64,000 nt of DNA. Origin: a virus (Duplodnaviria > Heunggongvirae > Uroviricota > Caudoviricetes). Both the position numbers and the translations under genes were made by a program. Positions 1,363-10,932 of this stretch are shown here, piece after piece (the first letter of the stretch is position 1; each line of letters opens with the position of its first letter). Under the pieces are notes generated by a model, which was given only the letters and a program-made list of their open reading frames with translations, did no database searches and was not told the DNA's origin. The stretch spans positions 2,668 to 66,667 of the IMG/VR virus record IMGVR_UViG_3300010883_000008, one strand, 5' to 3'.

Positions 1363-1836
1363 TTACTTTGGACGTTTATTGGCGAACTTTGCTCGTATCA
1401 GAGCCTTCCACAACAGCAGTACACCCACCCGTTTACTTGTATCTTTGACCGGCACCGTAAAGCTCAGTTGCAACACGTCCCCGAGAACGAGTTCTTCAAA
1501 CTTCATGGTTTGACACTCCATCAAGCCACCAATCGTATTATAGGTGACGTGGTAATGCTCGCCTGCAACGAAATGCTCAGGGGATGTAATGTTCACAACC
1601 TGTCTCATCATGCGTCTCCAGTGTATAAATGTCGGACCACACTCAGGCAAGCACCCGACCATTCTGGTGGGAGAGCCTCGTCCGGGATTATCGCCCCACT
1701 TTGAGGGAGTCGTGCTTTTTTCATGTCCCGCCGACATTATGCTTCTAAACCAGGGAGGCAGGACTCGAACCTGCAAGGATTCAAAGTTGGGCAACGTCAT
1801 TCTGACAACCCGGTTGACTGACCATGAATCAGTCAC
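1363..1836 (-). CDS. hypothetical protein, start uncertain
   Basis: 157-aa ORF. The C-terminal half is protein-like (FVAGEHYHVTYNTIGGLMECQTMKFEELVLGDVLQL). The N-terminal part overlaps the tRNA-like element at 1750-1776, so the true start is probably internal. Confidence 0.25.
   Translation of the reverse strand: MTDSWSVNRVVRMTLPNFESLQVRVLPPWFRSIMSAGHEKSTTPSKWGDNPGRGSPTRMVGCLPECGPTFIHWRRMMRQVVNITSPEHFVAGEHYHVTYNTIGGLMECQTMKFEELVLGDVLQLSFTVPVKDTSKRVGVLLLWKALIRAKFANKRPK
1750..1776 (-). other. tRNA 3'-half-like element (T-arm plus acceptor 3' strand) without a matching 5' acceptor strand
   Basis: The minus strand reads GCAGG-TTCGAGT-CCTGC (canonical T-stem/T-loop), then CTCCCTG plus G. No complementary CAGGGAG is found 60-90 nt upstream. 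So this is either a tRNA fragment, an att-core-like element, or a tRNA I cannot fold by eye. Confidence 0.3.
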
Positions 1837-2144
1837 TTCTATCCCACAACGAGGAGTTGGCCCCCCGCATGTCTACCGATTGCATCACTCCCCGAAAAAC
1901 TAAAGAAGGCGGGGCAGGACTTGCACCTACAAGGGGATCACGATCAATGCCGAGTAGCTATCTCGAACACCGGACTACCAGGGCCTAAAGGTAGTAATCC
2001 GTACCACTTTCCCCATAGGGTTCTACACCCTACGCGTTTACTAATTTCGCCACCCGCCCAGGTGGTCAATGAACGTAGCCTAATTTCTCCGGGGCCGTTG
2101 GCCGACACTACCGAAATCAGGGACTTTAATACCCTACGTTCAAG

Positions 2145-2218
2145 CCCTCAGGGTGGGTATCGAACCCACGCGACTGTCGGGGAATGACCCACGCCAGTTT
2201 GCTCCAAAGTCCCTGAGG
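2145..2218 (-). tRNA. tRNA-like gene (anticodon not resolved)
   Basis: The minus strand has a perfect 7-bp acceptor stem (CCTCAGG/CCTGAGG). It also has a canonical T-arm, GTGGG-TTCGATA-CCCAC, and discriminator G. Total length is 74 nt. The D and anticodon arms are non-canonical when folded by hand. Confidence 0.4.
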
Positions 2219-2284
2219 ATTGTAATCCGCACCACTGCCCGAAGGCCCTCCAAGAGGGATGCGGATCACCTACGTTAGTCGCCA

Positions 2285-2300
2285 GTGCAACTGATTGCAC
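2285..2300. repeat. palindrome family copy: GTGCAACTGATTGCAC
   Basis: Near-perfect 16-bp inverted repeat with half sites GTGCAA/TTGCAC. It lies in the non-coding tRNA-like region. Confidence 0.85.
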
Positions 2301-2480
2301 AAATTAACTAGCCAAGAAGGATTCGATTTCTCGACCCCACATTCGGTGACCGTTGCTCAACACCACGTAGGGGATCAACAACCCGTCTAGGCGTTCCGCT
2401 GCGATAACCTCGACCGTCGCCGTGGACTTACCCCACGAGACCTTACTACCAATTCCCAACAATAACATACCATCCCTTTC

Positions 2481-2801
2481 TCAAAAGATTTCCCATCGAT
2501 CATCGACACGATGATAGCCTATAACGTCGTAAACTTGCCAATTCTTCTGGTATTGACTTAACCATTTGAGGAACGTTCTTCTCTTTTGATAACGTTGCAC
2601 ACGGGTCACTTCCCGCGTTTTTCGTGACACCAGTTCGATCTTAAACATGAGGGTACTTTCATGATGTTTTCTCGAATCAGGTGCAGTTGTATTATGCCGA
2701 ACCTCGCGGACCCCCATCCACTCAAACGGTTCGGCACCTGTCGGAGACCTATTCACGACAGGCGAATTCTCGTAGACCCACACGGACGCTCTTGGGGTCA
2801 A
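2481..2801 (-). CDS. hypothetical protein
   Basis: 106-aa ORF. It overlaps the next gene by 53 nt, so the start is probably internal. Confidence 0.3.
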   Translation of the reverse strand: MTPRASVWVYENSPVVNRSPTGAEPFEWMGVREVRHNTTAPDSRKHHESTLMFKIELVSRKTREVTRVQRYQKRRTFLKWLSQYQKNWQVYDVIGYHRVDDRWEIF

Positions 2802-3159
2802 ACTTGTATTGTTTTTTGTCGCTTAGGCGACGGGCGATAATCGGGTATTTGGGGGCACTCCGATTAGCACCTACGATCTGGAAGGTGTGACCATCATACT
2901 CGAATACCCGATGCATGTCGTCAGCTTCCAGTCCCCACTGAGGGGCCAGTCTTTCAAAGTCGGTGACCGTGCGATCACGAACCTTACCACCTTCGCCCAC
3001 CACAGCGACCTCAAGTTGGAACGTACAGTTCTCCGTGGTGAATTTGCCCCGGCCTACCTTAATGGATAGCCCGAGAGCCAAAGCAGACTTTTCCAGTTCC
3101 GCTTCGATGTGATTTCGTAGTTTCGTTACGACCTCACTGTTTAATTCGTCAATTCTCAT
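2749..3159 (-). CDS. hypothetical protein
   Basis: 136-aa ORF. Composition is protein-like and the arrangement is compact with its neighbours. Confidence 0.45.
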   Translation of the reverse strand: MRIDELNSEVVTKLRNHIEAELEKSALALGLSIKVGRGKFTTENCTFQLEVAVVGEGGKVRDRTVTDFERLAPQWGLEADDMHRVFEYDGHTFQIVGANRSAPKYPIIARRLSDKKQYKFDPKSVRVGLREFACRE

Positions 3160-3161
3160 GA

Positions 3162-3377
3162 TTAGTATACCTCCACCGAGATTTCCGCCATTTCAGACAT
3201 GTCGATGACTTCGACAGGCATTCCGCCAAATTCTTTGGCAATCGCGTCGACTTCGTCCCCGGAGAATTCCGAGGCTTCGTCTCGCTGAGTTGTCCAGCGG
3301 AACCCAAAGTCTGTGGTAGCGACGTACCGGAGGGGCTGGTTTGTGATCAGTAGATACATAGTAGGTCTCCGTAGCAA
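3162..3377 (-). CDS. hypothetical small acidic protein
   Basis: 71-aa ORF. It follows the previous gene with a 2-nt gap. Confidence 0.4.
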   Translation of the reverse strand: MLRRPTMYLLITNQPLRYVATTDFGFRWTTQRDEASEFSGDEVDAIAKEFGGMPVEVIDMSEMAEISVEVY

Positions 3378-3428
3378 GGGGGGTATCGTTTTCCGATGAG
3401 TACAGTATCGCAGGTCAGCTTTTACGTG

Positions 3429-3611
3429 TCAAACATCACTGCTGACAGGTTTTTCAACCAACTCCCCGCGTAATACTCGAATCGACGGATCAGCATCGAT
3501 ACCTAACTTAATGGTGTTTCCTCGTACTTTAGTCACGGTCACTATTACGGGACCGAGGGGGGTCTCAATCATCAGGCTTTCGCCGGGCTTCCGAGATAAA
3601 ATTAACGCCAT
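3429..3611 (-). CDS. csrA: CsrA/RsmA-family post-transcriptional regulator homologue
   Basis: Internal Met start at 3611 with a GGAGGA Shine-Dalgarno sequence 7 nt upstream. The 60-aa product, MALILSRKPGESLMIE..VIVTVTKVRGNTIKLGIDADPSIRVLRGEL, aligns along its length with E. coli CsrA ([47 protein letters not shown]). Confidence 0.75.
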   Translation of the reverse strand: MALILSRKPGESLMIETPLGPVIVTVTKVRGNTIKLGIDADPSIRVLRGELVEKPVSSDV

Positions 3612-3724
3612 GTCCAATCCTCCATGAAAATTACAACTACGTAGGCAACAACACCTATCGTTAAAGCCCCTGTGACCCATAGCAGGGTCGGCAGGGGGAT
3701 GCTAAAGATGAATCCTTCCATCAT
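3602..3724 (-). CDS. small single-pass membrane protein
   Basis: Internal start MMEGFIFSIPLPTLLWVTGALTIGVVAYVVVIFMEDWTWR, one hydrophobic helix. ATGA start/stop overlap with the upstream gene and an AGGAGA Shine-Dalgarno sequence. Its 3' end overlaps the csrA start. Confidence 0.4.
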   Translation of the reverse strand: MMEGFIFSIPLPTLLWVTGALTIGVVAYVVVIFMEDWTWR

Positions 3725-4008
3725 CGATTCTCCTGAAGTTCCTTGAGTGCTTTTTCCAAGATCGCCACGTCCCGGGCTGCTCGTTCGGATACGTCCTTCA
3801 TATCCGGACGTTTGTCCGCAGACCAATTCTTGTAGTGATCCACCCAAAAGGCCAACTCATCGAGGCAGTCCCCGAAGCCTTCGTGAACAACTGCGAATTT
3901 GGCATGGCGGTTGCTGTCGTTCGGGAGCCGCCGAACCTTTAGTCCGGTGTCCTTGAAGAACGTCGTGTTACGAATCTTATCCGCGTGCATATTCCGCCAC
4001 TCCTTCAT
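3721..4008 (-). CDS. hypothetical protein
   Basis: 95-aa ORF with charged composition. Confidence 0.45.
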   Translation of the reverse strand: MKEWRNMHADKIRNTTFFKDTGLKVRRLPNDSNRHAKFAVVHEGFGDCLDELAFWVDHYKNWSADKRPDMKDVSERAARDVAILEKALKELQENR

Positions 4009-4288
4009 CCACCGATTTGCATCCGGTGGTCTGCATGTTGAAGTCGTCCATCTTGACGCCGACCGACATCAGCCAGATAGCTCGTAGCACCTTACGTCGA
4101 TGCGGGGAGGTATTGAACAGCTTGATGGTCGAGGGCTTTTCAAACCCCAGCTTCACACAGGCGTTTTGAATGTCGACTAGTTTGGGTTCGTTGTTAGCCA
4201 TAAGAAAGGTCTCCAGTTGGGGGTGTCGTTTGGCAATCGATTTGCCATATAAAGAGTATCGACGATTCCCTTCCAAAAGTCCAGTCAT
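3977..4288 (-). CDS. hypothetical protein
   Basis: 103-aa ORF. Confidence 0.4.
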   Translation of the reverse strand: MTGLLEGNRRYSLYGKSIAKRHPQLETFLMANNEPKLVDIQNACVKLGFEKPSTIKLFNTSPHRRKVLRAIWLMSVGVKMDDFNMQTTGCKSVDEGVAEYARG

Positions 4289-4306
4289 TTCTGGGGTATA
4301 AAATTA

Positions 4307-4525
4307 TTAGGATTCTGGCTCGATAATGGCCTCAGCCCAGTAATAGATAGCTACAGTTAACACGGGCGGATGACCATCCTCACTTGGGATGCAGTTCTCC
4401 GTGATGCTTTGGATGTTTGCCCGACCTACTCGATGTACGTATCTACGTACTCGATCCATAGTAGGGTTAGCATCCTCATCGTGGGTAGGGTCTTCCTCCG
4501 AGAATTCTTGTCGCCACAGGTTCAT
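4307..4525 (-). CDS. hypothetical protein
   Basis: 72-aa ORF. Confidence 0.35.
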   Translation of the reverse strand: MNLWRQEFSEEDPTHDEDANPTMDRVRRYVHRVGRANIQSITENCIPSEDGHPPVLTVAIYYWAEAIIEPES

Positions 4526-4615
4526 ATCAGTCTCCTAAAGTAAAAGGAGCCTTAGGACGAATCCCAAGGCTCCCCGCGAAGTTCCTCGTTACTCCCAGGT
4601 AACGCGGACTATGTA

Positions 4616-4927
4616 TCAGTCTTTCATCTTTTTGATTTGTTTGTTGTACTTCTCAGCCCAATCGTTGGGTTTTTCTTCCTCTTTGTCCCCGAGCAGTTCC
4701 CGGGGAGTCTTACCCTGTTCCGTGATCGTAGCGACCACCCCAAGACTTTTGCTCCGGGTTCCTCCGAGAACAACCGTTATGTAACCCTTCCTTTTGAGGT
4801 ACTGAACCGTTTGTTCTAAATCCGGGTCCCCGACCTTCAAGTCCAGATCCAGAGCAAGATCCCTGACTGCGATTGTGGACTCATCCGCATCGCGTATCAA
4901 CTTTAGTATTCGGTTCCATTGCAGCAT
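4616..4927 (-). CDS. hypothetical protein
   Basis: 103-aa ORF with a Lys-rich C terminus. Confidence 0.45.
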   Translation of the reverse strand: MLQWNRILKLIRDADESTIAVRDLALDLDLKVGDPDLEQTVQYLKRKGYITVVLGGTRSKSLGVVATITEQGKTPRELLGDKEEEKPNDWAEKYNKQIKKMKD

Positions 4928-4930
4928 GGC

Positions 4931-5269
4931 TTAATCCATAGGGCGAGAGAGTATGTCGTCAGGGGGTTCCTCCACCGAAACCCCGTAGTCCTCGATAGGG
5001 CTAGGAAGTACCAGGGGGCGAAGGGATACCCGTTCAGGTTTTGGCACCTTTACAGGCTCAGTTAAAAGGTAGCCTGAAACAGTGCGTAGGTAGGGGCGTT
5101 TCTTTATGATATAGAGACACTCCCAAGTACAATCCAGACTTCGTATAAAGTCGTCTGCTTCCATCGACGTACTAAAGATGTAGTCGTCAGGGGAACTCAG
5201 GGGGAGGAAGCTCCGCCATTCGGCCATCCGATGGGTAACTTCTATACGGCAGGGTCCGCGTCCGTGCAT
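4931..5269 (-). CDS. hypothetical protein
   Basis: 112-aa ORF. Confidence 0.4.
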   Translation of the reverse strand: MHGRGPCRIEVTHRMAEWRSFLPLSSPDDYIFSTSMEADDFIRSLDCTWECLYIIKKRPYLRTVSGYLLTEPVKVPKPERVSLRPLVLPSPIEDYGVSVEEPPDDILSRPMD

Positions 5270-5319
5270 GTCACTTCCCTAATAATGTATCGTGAACTCC
5301 CCCATCATACCACAAACTT

Positions 5320-5796
5320 CTACTGTTTCATATCCGAGATCTGCACGCCGGGCTTCCCCGATTTGGTTATGCGGGACGCTGAGATAGCCGCAGCGAGTGC
5401 TTTCTCTTCATCAGATCCACCCCCCGCGTCAACCAGCTTAAGTAAGGCATCCACTTTCGATCCCGATTCTTTGTATTCAATCGCAATCATGTGGCCTAGC
5501 AATTTGGTGTGGACCGACAACAACGCTCGAAGGGGATGTTCTTCGCCGGATTCCCGGGGGTAGCTTGCGTTCAGCTTCCGAACCAGTTTGATCATGTGCA
5601 TCTTCCCCGGCAGAGGGACGGTCCCTTTGGTTTTCGTGGACAGCACCAACTCGTTCATCAAGTTCACAAGGTCAGTCTCATCCTGAACAAGGTCGTTCAT
5701 TTGTTTCTTGGTCTTGACATAGGTTTTAGCCAAGCTGTCAACCAGAGCTTCTTGCGAAGTAAATTCTTCCTTAGTGACGGGGTTAACGTGGAGCAT
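5320..5796 (-). CDS. hypothetical protein
   Basis: 158-aa ORF. Confidence 0.45.
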   Translation of the reverse strand: MLHVNPVTKEEFTSQEALVDSLAKTYVKTKKQMNDLVQDETDLVNLMNELVLSTKTKGTVPLPGKMHMIKLVRKLNASYPRESGEEHPLRALLSVHTKLLGHMIAIEYKESGSKVDALLKLVDAGGGSDEEKALAAAISASRITKSGKPGVQISDMKQ

Positions 5797-6073
5797 TCTT
5801 ATTTTCCTCTTGAATAGTTCTCATTAGGTGAGCCGCAAACGACTTTTCGAGATCCCCCAAGGATTTCGCGTCTGAGGTCCAAACTTCTACGGTAGGGGAG
5901 TTTGGCCGAGTCTTATCATGTTCCCGAATCACGTGGAGTTTCTCCCCCTTCATGAACCGGTACATCTGGCCCGTCCGGCGATGCACGTCCTCGTTCATCG
6001 ATTTCACCGGAAATCCTAGATGGTCCTTTAACCATGCCACGAACATCGGTATCAAGCCTGCATCTAAGGTCAT
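5783..6073 (-). CDS. hypothetical protein (may be the 3' part of a frameshifted gene)
   Basis: 96-aa ORF overlapping ORF 5916-6284 by 158 nt in another frame. Its C-terminal part is protein-like. Confidence 0.35.
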   Translation of the reverse strand: MTLDAGLIPMFVAWLKDHLGFPVKSMNEDVHRRTGQMYRFMKGEKLHVIREHDKTRPNSPTVEVWTSDAKSLGDLEKSFAAHLMRTIQEENKNAPR

Positions 6074-6284
6074 CCAAGCGTTCCTTTAATATCACGGCGT
6101 CCAATTCTTCGCCGTTAGTTTCGCCACATAGGGCATTCTTTGCCAAGCGTACCAGTTCATAACTCAAGCTAGTACGAATCCCCGACTCCCGTTTTGCCGC
6201 GACAATTTCAAGCAAGTACTCAAGTACCCACTCGTCAGTCCGACGAAAGGTGATCTCCCGAGTTTGGTTCTTGCCCTTGGGCAC
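5916..6284 (-). CDS. hypothetical protein (N-terminal ~70 aa convincing, tail low-complexity)
   Basis: 122-aa ORF. Residues 1-70 (MPKGKNQTREITFRRTDEWVLEYLLEIVAAKRESG...) look genuine. The part overlapping ORF 5783-6073 turns Gly/Pro/Arg-rich. Confidence 0.35.
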   Translation of the reverse strand: MPKGKNQTREITFRRTDEWVLEYLLEIVAAKRESGIRTSLSYELVRLAKNALCGETNGEELDAVILKERLDDLRCRLDTDVRGMVKGPSRISGEIDERGRASPDGPDVPVHEGGETPRDSGT

Positions 6285-6444
6285 GGTGTCGCTCCAATCC
6301 GATTTTCAGTACTTCAACCGCAGCAGCACCTTGGGACAACGGAATGCCTTGGCGTTCCGCAATGTCCCGTAGTTGCTGGAGGGCATCGAAGATCCATAAA
6401 TCTTCCTTCGGCACCCAGATGGATAGTTTACGGCCTTTGATCAA
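6235..6444 (-). CDS. ribbon-helix-helix (CopG/Arc-like) DNA-binding protein, putative
   Basis: 69 aa. KLSIWVPKEDLWIFDALQQLRDIAERQGIPLSQGAAAVEVLKIGLE fits the RHH beta-strand, helix A, helix B pattern. It sits just upstream of the vWA/MoxR pair. Confidence 0.45.
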   Translation of the reverse strand: MIKGRKLSIWVPKEDLWIFDALQQLRDIAERQGIPLSQGAAAVEVLKIGLERHRAQGQEPNSGDHLSSD

Positions 6445-9263
6445 GATACACTCCGGATTACTTTCTGTAACAGTTTCCTCATGTCATTTACGAGTTGCCG
6501 TAAGTCGAGGAACTGTATGTAATGCTTGAACATGGACGACGATTTGAATCTCGTTATGGCTACCTGAACCACGTCCATTTCCTTTTCCAATTTCCGAACT
6601 TCGTCCCGAGTGGCACGGCGAGCAGTATCTCCACCATAGTCGTTGCCACAGGGGGCTCCGTCAGACAGCACCAGCATCAGACGATTCTCATTGTCGGTGT
6701 TCTCCTTGAACAGTCGACCGGCTTCCCGTATCGCCATGTGGTCATAGTTCTGACCACCGTCGCCGTACCCACCTATCGAGTAGACGTTCTTTTGTCGTTT
6801 GCCGTACAGGTACTTCATGTAGTTGTCGTCATGTCTGTTACACGAGGCATACGAGTAGATCTCAAGTTCGATCTTCGACACGTTAGCCAGAGCTTCGGCG
6901 AACAGGATAGCGATTTGCTTTGCCACCCCCGCTCGACCGTTCCAATCTTGGTAGGAACCCTTGCAGGTCCCCATCGATCCCGACTCATCCAAGAGCAGGC
7001 AGATTGCCAACCCTTTGGACGTGATCTTGGACGTGTTCTTGAACAGCCGTTTGGTGGAGCGGGCTCGTCCCAGTCGACGCCCGTCCAATCGACCCTCGAT
7101 CAGTTCTCGGTTGTCAACCAGTCTGTCCCCACGTCGGAAGGACAAGGCATTCTTGGTCCGGCCAATGAAGGGCTGTACCAATTTCTTCCCCGCCAAGTAG
7201 TCTCGTTTAGCGGACTCGTCCGGTCGTGGGTGAGATATGACAGTTCTTCGTCGAGTGTACTTGTCACACGGGCACGTTTCGGCCTCAACGAATTCCAGAC
7301 GTTCATCTTCGGCCTTAGCCAGTTCACAGGATTCCTCAAGATCCATCGTTCCCCCGTCAAAGGCTTCCATCATCCGAGCTAAGTCGATCAGCCCGAATCG
7401 TTCACCCTCACGGGATTTCTCCAAGGCGTCCGAGGCTTCCTTAAGGTCATCCAGCTTTTTCTCGTCCCGTTTGGCATCGGCCAACCGATCATCTTTCATG
7501 GCCTCCGTCAGATCGGAGAGATCCTTCAACTTTTCCAGGGCTTTCCGCATCCGTTCCCCCGTAGCTTCGATATCCTTTAGTAGAGCTTCCGTGTCGGTAT
7601 CGGTTTCCTTGGCGAGTCTGTGGTCATCCAGCCGCGTCAGGGTATCATCCATCTCGGCCTTCATCACATCGCCATCGTCCCGCCCGGCCAACTCCATCAG
7701 GAAGTCCCCGAAGTCTAGCTCGGGTTCGGGGAGTTCGGGTTCGCCTTCGCCTTCCGGCGTCGGGTGTTCCCCGCCCGTCGTTTCTTCCCCGCGTTCCGTT
7801 GTTTCTTCGTCAGACGTTTCGAGCGAGTCTTCTTTCGTTTCCCCGCTTCCGCCTGTAGTTGATGTTTCATCCGTTGGAAGTCCGTCACCCCCTGGCTCTC
7901 CGGGGCCACCCCCTCGTTCGGATCGACTGGGGTCGGAACCACCCCCGCCAGTTGCATCTGATCCTTCAGTTGATCTGCCGCTTCCGCCATCGTCAGAGGG
8001 TCCGGTGTCGACTCCATCGGTTTCTCCTTCTGGTGTCCCGGAGGAAGATCCACTGGGACCGTCCGGGGTACTTGATTTGCCATCGTCATCCCCGTCGCCT
8101 GCTCCGGGGTCATCGGAGGTTGGGGGCTCACCGGACCCATCGTCGCCAGCTTCGGGGGTTGACTCACTGTCCGACCCGTCTGAGTCCCCGTCACATTCAG
8201 CAGATCCACCTTCGGCGGATTCGTCGGAGGATTCGTCGGAGGTAGATTCTTCTCGTCCATCGTCAGGTTCCTTATCAGGTTCAGTGCAATCAGTTGCACT
8301 AGATTTTTCCTCGGCCCGTTTATCGGCCATTTCTTTTTTAACGTCCTCGATCATTTCGTCAACACGTTCATCGCCCAAGGCTTCACGCAACGCATCTTCA
8401 TCGTCCTTAGCAGCAAGTTTGTCGTAGATGTCCTGCATCCGGTTGAAGTACTCAACCAATCTGGCCCCCGCCATTTCCACGTCGTCCTCAGTCACCGGGG
8501 TGTGGGGTATGACACCCCGCAACTCGTCGAACGCACAGTCGCCTTTCACAGTCTTCCAAGTTTTCATCGCGGGGGATAAATGGTACGGGCACCGGATGGC
8601 TGTAAACATCAACGTGGTGAGTTTGTCTAGGTCCGTCAACTTGTCCCAGTTGGTCAACGATTCAAGGAATTTCTTGGCTTGGAAGATCACCCGTTTCGAC
8701 GCCTGTAGATACGGAGCATACCCCGGGCTGCGTTTACGGGCGAGGTTCTCGATGCGTTCGTCTTCAAGCAGGTTCTCCCACATGATCCGTTTGGGATCAG
8801 AGAGAGCTTTGGATTGCAGACGTAGGCCGAGCTTGCGAGTGGAGATTAGATGTTCCGTCTCATGGATACCTAACCCACAGTAGGCGTCCATCATTTCTTG
8901 ACCATCGGCCAAGTCATAGACGCTCGTGCCCAGGAAGATGAACGGTCCCTCCCATGGGTCCATTCTTTGCCATCCCGCCATGCCGGAAGCGGCTGTCCCG
9001 ATGGACGCCAGTTGGATGTTGGTCTTGGGGGGTGCCCCGTGGATCTTACAGATCGAAGCTACCGCATTGCGTATGCGGATAAGATCGAATACCTTTTGTT
9101 GAGCATCTTTGGCCTTGGTTCGGCCATAGCCCCACCCGCCTGAGGTCGAGGCGGATCGTAGAACTTCGTCCCGTTCAACTTCGGCGGCGGCGAGTTCCGA
9201 TATGAAGTCGTCTCCCTCAACCGTAAGTTCCAGGGGCTCGTATTCATGTGTCCAGTTTGGCAT
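6441..9263 (-). CDS. vWA-domain protein with N-terminal HExxH region and long acidic low-complexity linker (CobT-like / DUF2201-like MoxR partner)
   Basis: 940 aa. C-terminal von Willebrand A domain with MIDAS motif DESGS (LAICLLLDESGSMG). About 170 aa of D/E/S/G-rich sequence and a coiled coil. HETEH motif at about aa 150. Confidence 0.75.
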   Translation of the reverse strand: MPNWTHEYEPLELTVEGDDFISELAAAEVERDEVLRSASTSGGWGYGRTKAKDAQQKVFDLIRIRNAVASICKIHGAPPKTNIQLASIGTAASGMAGWQRMDPWEGPFIFLGTSVYDLADGQEMMDAYCGLGIHETEHLISTRKLGLRLQSKALSDPKRIMWENLLEDERIENLARKRSPGYAPYLQASKRVIFQAKKFLESLTNWDKLTDLDKLTTLMFTAIRCPYHLSPAMKTWKTVKGDCAFDELRGVIPHTPVTEDDVEMAGARLVEYFNRMQDIYDKLAAKDDEDALREALGDERVDEMIEDVKKEMADKRAEEKSSATDCTEPDKEPDDGREESTSDESSDESAEGGSAECDGDSDGSDSESTPEAGDDGSGEPPTSDDPGAGDGDDDGKSSTPDGPSGSSSGTPEGETDGVDTGPSDDGGSGRSTEGSDATGGGGSDPSRSERGGGPGEPGGDGLPTDETSTTGGSGETKEDSLETSDEETTERGEETTGGEHPTPEGEGEPELPEPELDFGDFLMELAGRDDGDVMKAEMDDTLTRLDDHRLAKETDTDTEALLKDIEATGERMRKALEKLKDLSDLTEAMKDDRLADAKRDEKKLDDLKEASDALEKSREGERFGLIDLARMMEAFDGGTMDLEESCELAKAEDERLEFVEAETCPCDKYTRRRTVISHPRPDESAKRDYLAGKKLVQPFIGRTKNALSFRRGDRLVDNRELIEGRLDGRRLGRARSTKRLFKNTSKITSKGLAICLLLDESGSMGTCKGSYQDWNGRAGVAKQIAILFAEALANVSKIELEIYSYASCNRHDDNYMKYLYGKRQKNVYSIGGYGDGGQNYDHMAIREAGRLFKENTDNENRLMLVLSDGAPCGNDYGGDTARRATRDEVRKLEKEMDVVQVAITRFKSSSMFKHYIQFLDLRQLVNDMRKLLQKVIRSVS
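8284..8299. repeat. palindrome family copy: GTGCAATCAGTTGCAC
   Basis: 16-bp inverted repeat inside the acidic region of the vWA gene. Confidence 0.85.
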
Positions 9264-9348
9264 AACACAGGTCTCCTAATTGGGGGTAGGTTCATTTCCA
9301 TACCCATACAATAACCGATATCCTCAGTCACCACAAGGGGTTACTCGA

Positions 9349-10932
9349 TTATCCAATGTCACCCTTCTGGATGATTTGGAGGACTTTCGTGCGATCCGAT
9401 TCTTCCCCACCCTCGTCCGAGAAGTGGCAGAGGATTGAACCCCTACAGGCTAAGTCGAACCGCATACCATCCGCGAGCTTGCGTCCCGTTGCCAACAGCA
9501 TTCTCGTAGATATGAACTCGGGGAATTCTTGGTCCCCGCGAGTCAGTTCCCGCTGTCGTACGGCGATCTTCACTAGTCGAACCGCGTCCACCCGTTTCAG
9601 ACCTTTGCATCGTCCCGTCAGGATGGTCACTTCGTTGGCCTCGGGTGGGAAGAACATCTCGATGATGGTGGAGAAGCGATCTTTCAACGCCTTATCCAAT
9701 GCTTCCGTTCCCGTGTACTCCATGCCGATGTTCGCCGTAGCGGTGATGGAAACTCCCTCACCCATGTTAACTATCGACGCGTCGTCATGCTCGTCCAAAG
9801 CGATGTACCGTTGGCTGTCCAACGCGGGCAGTAAGATATTGAATGCGGCTGGTACGGCACGGGTCAACTCATCCAACATGATGATGCTGTTCCCGAGATC
9901 CCCCCGGTAGGCTTGCACGAATCGGGCATCCGATACATACGTCCCCGCCTCATTCAGTCCTACGTTTCCGATCAGCGAGGTTCGAGGCTCACTCATGGCA
10001 CCGCAGTTGAAGGCCGCTAACTCACGTTCAACCGCACGTGATACAAAGTGTAGCACCTGTGATTTACCTGACCCCGAAGGTCCCACCAGAAGCAAGTTCT
10101 CCCCTGGTGTCAAGATGGTGTAGCAGATCTCTTCCCAATCGTCCTTGGACACGAAGAACTCCGAAGGATGGGGTCGACGTATCGTCTTGTAGAGCGGTGT
10201 CGGTCGATCAGCCGCAAGTTCCTCCATCCGGGCTTTGACCTCATCGGTGGCCGACTTGGCGATTTCCGCAGGTTCCCCGAAGCCCTCTACTGGGTCGACC
10301 GGATCGACCGGGCTGGTAGGGGTCGGTGGCAGGAATTCTTCGTCGGTCGTGTCCTCCGGGGCATCCCCCGGACGAACCGCACTCGCTCCAGCATCCCGAA
10401 CTTCGGGTGATGCCGATGCCTTCTTGAGTCGTAGGGACGCTTGGCATTCAGCATATATGCGAGCCGGATTGAATGGGCGTTCTTTGGCCTCCAGACATGA
10501 CGTGTCCGGGTCCTTGCCGTCCAATAGCCACAGCAGGTTATGTAAGGACACATCTCCGATCCGAGGGGACACAGCCCCTAGAGAGTTCTCACCCTTAGGC
10601 AAGTTCAGCACCACTGCGTAGGTGAGAGGGCTGGATGTTCGCCAGGGGATAACCCCATCTGAATCGATCTCGACGCCCCCGCCCTCGGTCCAAGTGTTCA
10701 GATCCGTTCGGACCACTCGCTCATGGTCGCACTTGGATTCAAACTTGTACATCGCACAGTCGCAAACTGTCGCGTCGGGCGTGATAGATACGTTGGTAAG
10801 CAGTCTGGCAGTATTGCTCACGATTTGGAATACCTCAAATTGGTTTTCGTCCACTTTGAAGCCAATTAAGATAGCCTTGTCCGCCATAACATGATCTCCT
10901 GAAATTGGGGGTTCGTTCGTTTCGTCCAACAA
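9349..10932 (-). CDS. MoxR-family AAA+ ATPase (CobS-like)
   Basis: 527 aa. Walker A LLLVGPSGSGKSQ and Walker B IIMLDELTR. It sits immediately downstream of the vWA partner, the usual MoxR/CobS genetic coupling. Confidence 0.75.
   Translation of the reverse strand: MLDETNEPPISGDHVMADKAILIGFKVDENQFEVFQIVSNTARLLTNVSITPDATVCDCAMYKFESKCDHERVVRTDLNTWTEGGGVEIDSDGVIPWRTSSPLTYAVVLNLPKGENSLGAVSPRIGDVSLHNLLWLLDGKDPDTSCLEAKERPFNPARIYAECQASLRLKKASASPEVRDAGASAVRPGDAPEDTTDEEFLPPTPTSPVDPVDPVEGFGEPAEIAKSATDEVKARMEELAADRPTPLYKTIRRPHPSEFFVSKDDWEEICYTILTPGENLLLVGPSGSGKSQVLHFVSRAVERELAAFNCGAMSEPRTSLIGNVGLNEAGTYVSDARFVQAYRGDLGNSIIMLDELTRAVPAAFNILLPALDSQRYIALDEHDDASIVNMGEGVSITATANIGMEYTGTEALDKALKDRFSTIIEMFFPPEANEVTILTGRCKGLKRVDAVRLVKIAVRQRELTRGDQEFPEFISTRMLLATGRKLADGMRFDLACRGSILCHFSDEGGEESDRTKVLQIIQKGDIG

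Follow-up and report, generated by a model that had tools for sequence, protein, structure and literature searches.

Homologs of the RNA-binding regulator CsrA (RsmA) are encoded by a number of phages and are thought to let these viruses rewire post-transcriptional control in the host. Sobrero & Valverde (2020) identified 30 phages with csrA homologs, corresponding to about 1.2% of phage genomes (PMC7366521). Subsequently, Campa et al. (2021) described many phage RsmA/CsrA homologs in GenBank and IMG/VR, for which they proposed host manipulation and anti-CRISPR activity; they also identified host RsmA as a repressor of type I-E, I-F, and III-A cas expression in Serratia and found that phage RsmA homologs correlate with hosts having RsmA (PMC8450108). 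Using E. coli CsrA as a query against 50,697 phage records, we obtained 88 matches, mostly from Pseudomonas and Vibrio phages. To our knowledge, no phage-borne CsrA has been functionally characterized, and in Planctomycetota both the Csr system and the phages have hardly been explored.

Here, we analyzed a csrA-like gene on a 64,000-nucleotide stretch of viral DNA (from here on, the window; positions 2,668 to 66,667 of IMG/VR record IMGVR_UViG_3300010883_000008), which an earlier sequence-only reading had described as a phage-encoded csrA overlapping a gene for a tiny membrane protein. With the protein from the window as the query, the same 50,697 records yielded a single match, with 43% identity, in an unannotated 595-kb metagenomic phage. 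Based on the published work, PHROG 9500, and the 88 matching records, phage CsrA is an already described class, and the copy in the window is, by sequence, a new and divergent example of it. The earlier reading did not take this class into account, and its prior description lowers the novelty of the gene.

A csrA-like gene in a tailed phage genome

The window carries genes for a terminase large subunit, a portal protein, a tape measure protein, a family-A DNA polymerase, and a helicase, and it also encodes RusA, a Cas4-like exonuclease, and a UvsX-like recombinase. The replicon is a tailed phage, and the terminase, portal, tape measure, and DNA polymerase genes bear out the earlier claim that csrA is phage-encoded. 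The genes of the window are all read from the minus strand; noise aside, no ORF of 150 aa or more departs from this orientation. csrA belongs to a series of small ORFs that follows the replication module and to which no function is assigned. Just upstream of this block of small ORFs (6441 to 10932, minus strand), a gene for a 527-aa MoxR/CbbQ-type AAA+ ATPase (PHROG 249, "porphyrin biosynthesis"; CobS-like) is followed by one for a 940-aa protein with weak VWA/CobT_C similarity, and this pair resembles a CobS/CobT-like accessory pair. Our searches for close viral relatives of the 940-aa VWA protein, the MoxR-like ATPase, and a 335-aa protein returned none.

No GenBank phage has a large terminase more than 25% identical to the one in the window, and a megablast search with positions 2400 to 6400 against phages gave no match. 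Two IMG/VR contigs (L006 and L007) have a syntenic head module with 34 to 65% identity, with the terminase at 60%, the portal protein at 51%, and a 339-aa protein at 65%; this comparison covers the head module and not the csrA region. By these comparisons, the phage lineage is itself novel, with no close cultured or deposited relative. The csrA region is 100% identical at the DNA level in five metagenome assemblies, and contigs that encode the protein reach a length of 99,426 bp. Because these five other copies are all identical, they give no substitution signal.

Elsewhere in the window, a stretch of ~700 nt (1609 to 2303, minus strand), for which the matching metagenome contig has no gene call, contains three tRNA-like elements at about 1749 to 1895, 1905 to 2059, and 2144 to 2255. 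Each combines an acceptor stem of 7 positions with a T-arm that approaches the consensus GGTTCGAnnCC, and the direct repeat GGCAGGACTCGAACCTGCAAGG is present at 1757 to 1778 and 1913 to 1934. The elements were missed by ARAGORN with default settings and by Rfam; with introns allowed and a lowered threshold, ARAGORN reported Val-GAC, Ser-AGA, and Asp-GTC with inserts of 61, 75, and 35 nt, respectively. They may be phage tRNAs that have degenerated or carry inserts, or structures that merely resemble tRNAs.

The csrA ORF extends from an ATG at 3611 to 3609 to a TGA at 3431 to 3429 and encodes the 60-aa product MALILSRKPGESLMIETPLGPVIVTVTKVRGNTIKLGIDADPSIRVLRGELVEKPVSSDV (Table 1). Its codons are phage-like, with a score of +0.28 based on the phage's own codon usage, and a search for a second csrA copy across the window identified none. 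We also considered an in-frame start at 3680, which would give a product of 83 aa. This start was dismissed: it has no Shine-Dalgarno sequence, the frame scores as noncoding, and BLAST extensions into the upstream DNA of relatives cross stop codons. In every case, the CsrA of the relatives starts with M-L/A-[VI]-L immediately after a stop codon.

Table 1. Features at and around the csrA-like gene (positions within the window)
Feature	Coordinates	Strand	Basis or remark
Downstream ORF, 64 aa, 72 nt past csrA	3162..3356	-	Coding-type codon usage
Promoter-like sequence TTGACA-17-(TG)GATACT over the csrA stop codon	3404..3432	-	10 of 12 consensus positions
csrA-like gene, 60 aa plus stop	3429..3611	-	Pfam, PHROG, PDB, AlphaFold2/Foldseek
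ORF for single-pass membrane peptide, 40 aa	3602..3724	-	Translation, codon usage, hydropathy
Shine-Dalgarno sequence of csrA, GGAGGA, 6 nt before the ATG, within the peptide ORF	3618..3623	-	Sequence
Upstream ORF, 95 aa (89 aa with the start MHADK)	3721..4008	-	TGA/ATG overlap with the peptide ORF
Terminator-like hairpin, 14-bp GC-rich stem, poor T-tail, between two small ORFs	4544..4575	-	

The product scores 55.9 bits with the model of Pfam family PF02599, for which the gathering score is 27 bits (E = 4.3e-15; residues 3 to 54 aligned to profile positions 2 to 50 of 53) and, thus, belongs to the CsrA family. It also matches PHROG 9500, "CsrA-like regulator" (E = 2.4e-10), and this profile match together with the viral genome places it among the phage CsrA-like regulators. 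Solved CsrA chains in the PDB match at E ~2e-5, with R48 aligned to R44 of E. coli CsrA. The scores against the NCBIfam equivalog models TIGR00202 and NF002469 were below threshold (42.0 bits versus 70.1 and 41.6 bits versus 73, respectively). Based on these profile scores, the protein is a member of the CsrA family and not an equivalog of the canonical, housekeeping CsrA.

Residues L3, L5, R7, K8, I44, V46, R48, and L51 align to L2, L4, R6, R7, V40, V42, R44, and I47 of E. coli CsrA, which were reportedly found to be critical by Mercante-type mutagenesis. In an alignment of 50 sequences of relatives, L3, L5, R7, R48, and E50 are invariant; the equivalent of Arg44, the conservation of which the earlier reading had proposed to check, is accordingly present as R48 in all 50. 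An AlphaFold2 model of the monomer, computed with this 50-sequence alignment as input, had a pLDDT of 87.9. Searching the PDB with the model using Foldseek, we found that ranks 1 to 14 were all CsrA, RsmA, or RsmE chains (TM 0.5 to 0.7, probability 0.95 to 1.00), with an rmsd of mostly about 2.1 to 2.7 Å over about 50 residues; the small size of the protein limited the E-values to about 1e-2. The predicted structure, thus, matches the CsrA protomer fold of β-strands followed by a C-terminal helix, and this helix is only three residues long in the model and followed by a low-confidence tail. Profile, conserved residues, and predicted fold agree with the original assignment of the 60-aa product as a CsrA homolog.

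Relatives of the protein in Planctomycetota and in phages

An exhaustive HMMER scan of 1.84 billion representatives identified 1503 relatives at E ≤ 1e-3, none of which was >61% identical to the protein in the window. Among 440 confirmed cellular relatives from a genome scan seeded with an N-terminal pattern, the 19 that ranked highest were all from Planctomycetota (Gemmataceae, Pirellulales, Planctomycetaceae, or similar), with identities of up to 59%; one representative carries the name Gemmataceae. Identity to the CsrA proteins of E. coli and B. subtilis is 40% and 38%, respectively. These data suggest that csrA was probably acquired from, and is probably used in, a Planctomycetota-like host, on the basis of one small gene and a pattern-limited search.

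Based on loop and tail, 125 short relatives split into two forms. Members of the first form, which include those traced to Planctomycetota genomes, have the canonical loop and C-terminal tails of 14 to 51 residues. Members of the second form have an "xTPxGxxI" insertion of 3 to 5 residues between strands 2 and 3, tails of mostly 2 to 17 residues, and a total length of mostly 53 to 67 aa. The protein from the window is of the second form, with a 3-residue loop insertion and 9 residues past the RGEL motif. Members of this form with enough flanking DNA have phage-like surroundings: one (L094) lies about 2 kb from a gene for a terminase large subunit, one (L010, described below) comes after an excisionase-like HTH gene, one (L008) is near a phage-type helicase gene, and one (L096) adjoins a nuclease gene.

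Relatives of the protein are encoded on 29 IMG/VR contigs. The tail is short in nearly all of the viral CsrAs retrieved from IMG/VR, and the loop is canonical in 17 of the 18 IMG/VR CsrAs with measurable spacing. The latter count rules out that the loop insertion is an exclusive mark of phage CsrA.

Two further observations concern the architecture and placement of the relatives. On contig L010 (1091 to 2480), the gene for a short-tailed CsrA comes second in what appears to be an early operon, after an excisionase/HTH-like gene that faces divergent genes; NinG is encoded a few genes further on. Such a position suggests that this CsrA acts early, in a phage of the lambdoid type. In addition, CsrA family members are normally stand-alone proteins of 60 to 75 aa, and fusions or giant architectures are unusual; the best-scoring relatives (P0007 to P0013, P0025, and P0035) include tandem CsrA-CsrA fusions of 110 to 176 aa as well as two giant proteins with internal CsrA-like stretches, one of 2639 aa and one of 2202 aa, in which six stretches match.

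Junctions of csrA with its neighbors

The ORF immediately upstream of csrA is read from 3724 to 3602 on the minus strand and encodes MMEGFIFSIPLPTLLWVTGALTIGVVAYVVVIFMEDWTWR. This peptide is 40 aa long; the length of 41 aa given in the earlier reading counts the stop codon. Its hydropathy maximum over 19 residues is 2.36, indicating a clear transmembrane segment and supporting the suggestion of a single-pass membrane peptide. The codon score of the ORF is +0.26 in frame, a value reached by only 0.3% of off-frame windows, with in-frame 40-codon windows of long phage genes scoring 0.36 ± 0.19 as the reference. Metagenome gene callers report the peptide as a 40-aa gene in five independent assemblies. 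Based on codon usage, the ORF is plausibly coding. Among 5.8 billion clusters, we found no homolog of the peptide except itself, and it had no match in Pfam, PHROG, or NCBIfam.

As the sequence-only reading had noted, the csrA start codon is located inside the peptide ORF, and the two ORFs overlap by the 10 nt ATGGCGTTAA (3611 to 3602). The Shine-Dalgarno sequence of csrA (3623 to 3618) is at the same time two adjacent GGA motifs. At the other end of the peptide ORF, the ATG (3724 to 3722) overlaps the TGA (3723 to 3721) of the 95-aa ORF as ATGA, and an AGGAG (3734 to 3730) is located 5 nt upstream of this ATG. Thus, csrA and the peptide ORF have the geometry of a coupled pair: the peptide ORF contains both the start codon and the Shine-Dalgarno sequence of csrA, and it ends close to that start codon. 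The layout of the junctions, an ATGA followed by a 10-nt overlap with an internal Shine-Dalgarno sequence, has the look of translational coupling, and coupling would be one reading of it. In the minimum free energy (MFE) fold, the Shine-Dalgarno sequence of csrA pairs with a weak AU/GU-rich arm inside the peptide ORF (3633 to 3626); this fold is no better than those of shuffled sequences (z = 0.76), and we found no significant RNA structure masking the csrA start.

At the 29 IMG/VR loci and four metagenomic loci that we inspected, no hydrophobic ORF lies upstream of csrA, which rules out the membrane peptide as a conserved partner of phage CsrA. Because the peptide has no homolog and no counterpart at other viral csrA loci, the overlap is best read as ordinary tight packing of phage genes and not as a conserved module. 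We also considered a holin- or toxin-type context for the peptide and identified no lysis gene near it.

Beyond these junctions, the 95-aa ORF had only itself as a homolog, and neither it (no match in Pfam or PHROG) nor the 64-aa ORF downstream of csrA (no significant match in Pfam or PHROG) could be assigned to a family. The promoter-like sequence over the csrA stop codon is weak evidence for a promoter, since such sites are no commoner in the region than in shuffled sequence. The hairpin further upstream may mark where the csrA-containing transcription unit begins.

Proposed function, alternatives, and comparison with known systems

Given an intact RNA-binding surface and a confidently predicted fold, the mechanism of the family is the most economical one for this protein, and a GGA-binding translational repressor made during infection is, by analogy with the family, its most likely function. 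We favor, with a confidence somewhat better than even, that it raises CsrA activity in an infected, Planctomycetota-like host and is expressed by re-initiation or coupling from the peptide ORF. We infer that this minimal CsrA-family protein would be made from a polycistronic block of small accessory genes, with its translation depending on ribosomes that read the 40-aa peptide ORF containing its Shine-Dalgarno sequence. By analogy with CsrA, RsmA, and RsmE, it would form an intertwined homodimer and bind GGA motifs at Shine-Dalgarno sequences or close to them, where the RNA is single-stranded or forms a hairpin loop, and the bound target mRNAs would be repressed or, sometimes, stabilized. The CsrA activity added during infection would shift the host Csr regulon, comprising motility, surface polysaccharide, carbon storage, and possibly defense genes, toward a CsrA-high state, and the GGA-rich start region of csrA itself could be a further target. 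The ideas of host reprogramming, sRNA titration, and genuine translational coupling in the sequence-only reading are of the same conditional kind. The sub-equivalog NCBIfam scores argue against this explanation in that they indicate that the protein is not a straightforward ortholog of housekeeping CsrA.

There is a modest chance that the phage CsrA mainly controls the phage's own mRNAs as a temporal repressor like T4 RegA, including autoregulation and control of the membrane peptide. E. coli CsrA represses its own translation, and in the window csrA lies within a densely packed operon of small phage genes. Moreover, the start regions of csrA and the peptide ORF, with three and four GGA motifs, respectively, are among the most GGA-rich of 80 (mean, 1.26). 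At least three motifs are present near the start of only 8 of the 80 genes, and these eight share no functional class, which speaks against a phage regulon, as does the observation that the GGA sites in the window are not clustered beyond what its composition predicts. Shine-Dalgarno sequences contain GGA anyway. The excess at the two start regions is modest; it would fit autoregulation but is not evidence for it.

We consider it improbable that the gene is primarily an anti-defense factor, in which the extra CsrA would repress host mRNAs for CRISPR-Cas or other defense systems as proposed for phage RsmA. Repression of cas by host RsmA in Serratia and the correlation of phage homologs with hosts having RsmA speak for this idea (PMC8450108). 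However, nothing in the window ties csrA to defense or anti-defense genes, and its neighbors are without detectable homologs.

Even less probable, in our view, is that the protein acts by interference, either soaking up CsrA antagonists such as sponge sRNAs and FliW-type proteins or forming mixed dimers with the host CsrA. The identity of up to 59% to CsrA of Planctomycetota makes mixed dimers conceivable. The C-terminal tail, which we take to be the region contacted by FliW in PDB 5DMB, is nearly absent, with the 9 residues after RGEL compared to 14 to 51 in cellular relatives. Conversely, all RNA-binding residues are intact, so that direct RNA binding is simplest, and the two Planctomycetota csrA loci that we inspected by eye have no fliW-like neighbor. 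A CsrB/RsmZ-type sponge RNA encoded together with csrA was also not found in the window: the Rfam scan gave no family at gathering score and, near csrA, none at E ≤ 1 except a spurious miRNA, and we detected no GGA-dense noncoding stretch. Finally, we give almost no credence to a recently captured passenger without an adaptive role or an unexpressed ORF, for which the single phage population with its identical copies and the neighbors without detectable homologs could be cited, in view of the intact ORF with its strong Shine-Dalgarno sequence, phage-like codons, and fully kept conserved residues, the maximum identity of 61% among the representatives scanned, which does not fit a recent capture, and the recurrence of short-tailed CsrAs across many viral contigs.

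A bolder reading can also be formulated, which we regard as improbable. The short-tailed, loop-extended CsrA would be a phage-specialized form that has shed the parts serving control by the cell and locks a planctomycete Csr regulon in the repressed state. In addition or instead, csrA and the peptide ORF might form a self-regulating two-gene module, in which the RNA-binding protein would repress the GGA-rich start of a coupled, membrane-active peptide.

A csrA gene in a phage is an expected type of accessory gene and no surprise in itself. The present example extends phage CsrA beyond the Pseudomonas and Vibrio phages to an uncultured lineage of roughly 100 kb with a planctomycete-looking CsrA. 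It also provides a compact natural variant of 60 aa, with a loop insertion and almost no tail, that bears on which parts of CsrA serve RNA binding and which serve control by antagonists. Its significance would be greater only if the short-tailed form resists host antagonists or works together with the peptide.

In comparison with E. coli CsrA, Pseudomonas RsmA and RsmE, and the CsrA proteins of B. subtilis and Geobacillus (1Y00, 1VPZ, 2JPP, and 5DMB), the protein has the same predicted fold (TM 0.6 to 0.7, rmsd about 2.1 Å over 50 residues) and equivalents of the binding residues but differs in its identity of only 38 to 44%, its truncated C-terminal helix, and its sub-equivalog score; neither a CsrB/RsmZ-type sponge RNA nor a FliW partner is seen close to it. 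CsrT of a Legionella ICE and the RsmA encoded on S. meliloti plasmid pMBA19a are likewise Csr-family regulators that a mobile element brings along, presumably to interface with host regulation; those genes are on conjugative elements or plasmids, whereas the csrA described here is on a virus with structural and replication modules and not beside transfer genes. Among phage CsrAs (PHROG 9500), examples are the RsmM-type proteins of Pseudomonas phages F116, H66, and YMC11/07/P54 and the proteins of Vibrio phage VvAW1 and Burkholderia phage DC1. The protein from the window resembles the PHROG 9500 proteins in being a small CsrA-domain protein encoded among tailed-phage accessory genes, with the binding residues kept and a short C terminus. 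The deposited phage CsrAs are of the gammaproteobacterial type and 55 to 69% identical to E. coli CsrA, in contrast to 40% for the protein from the window, which is nearest to CsrA of Planctomycetota and has the 3-residue insertion between strands 2 and 3. With CsrA of Gemmataceae, Pirellulales, and Planctomycetaceae, it shares the highest identity to any cellular relative (53 to 59%) and the signature MLVLSRKPGE...[VI]LRGEL, in which enterobacteria have VHREEI instead. The Planctomycetota proteins are 65 to 98 aa long with tails of 14 to 51 residues and a canonical loop, whereas the phage protein has 60 aa, a tail of 9 residues, and a longer loop.
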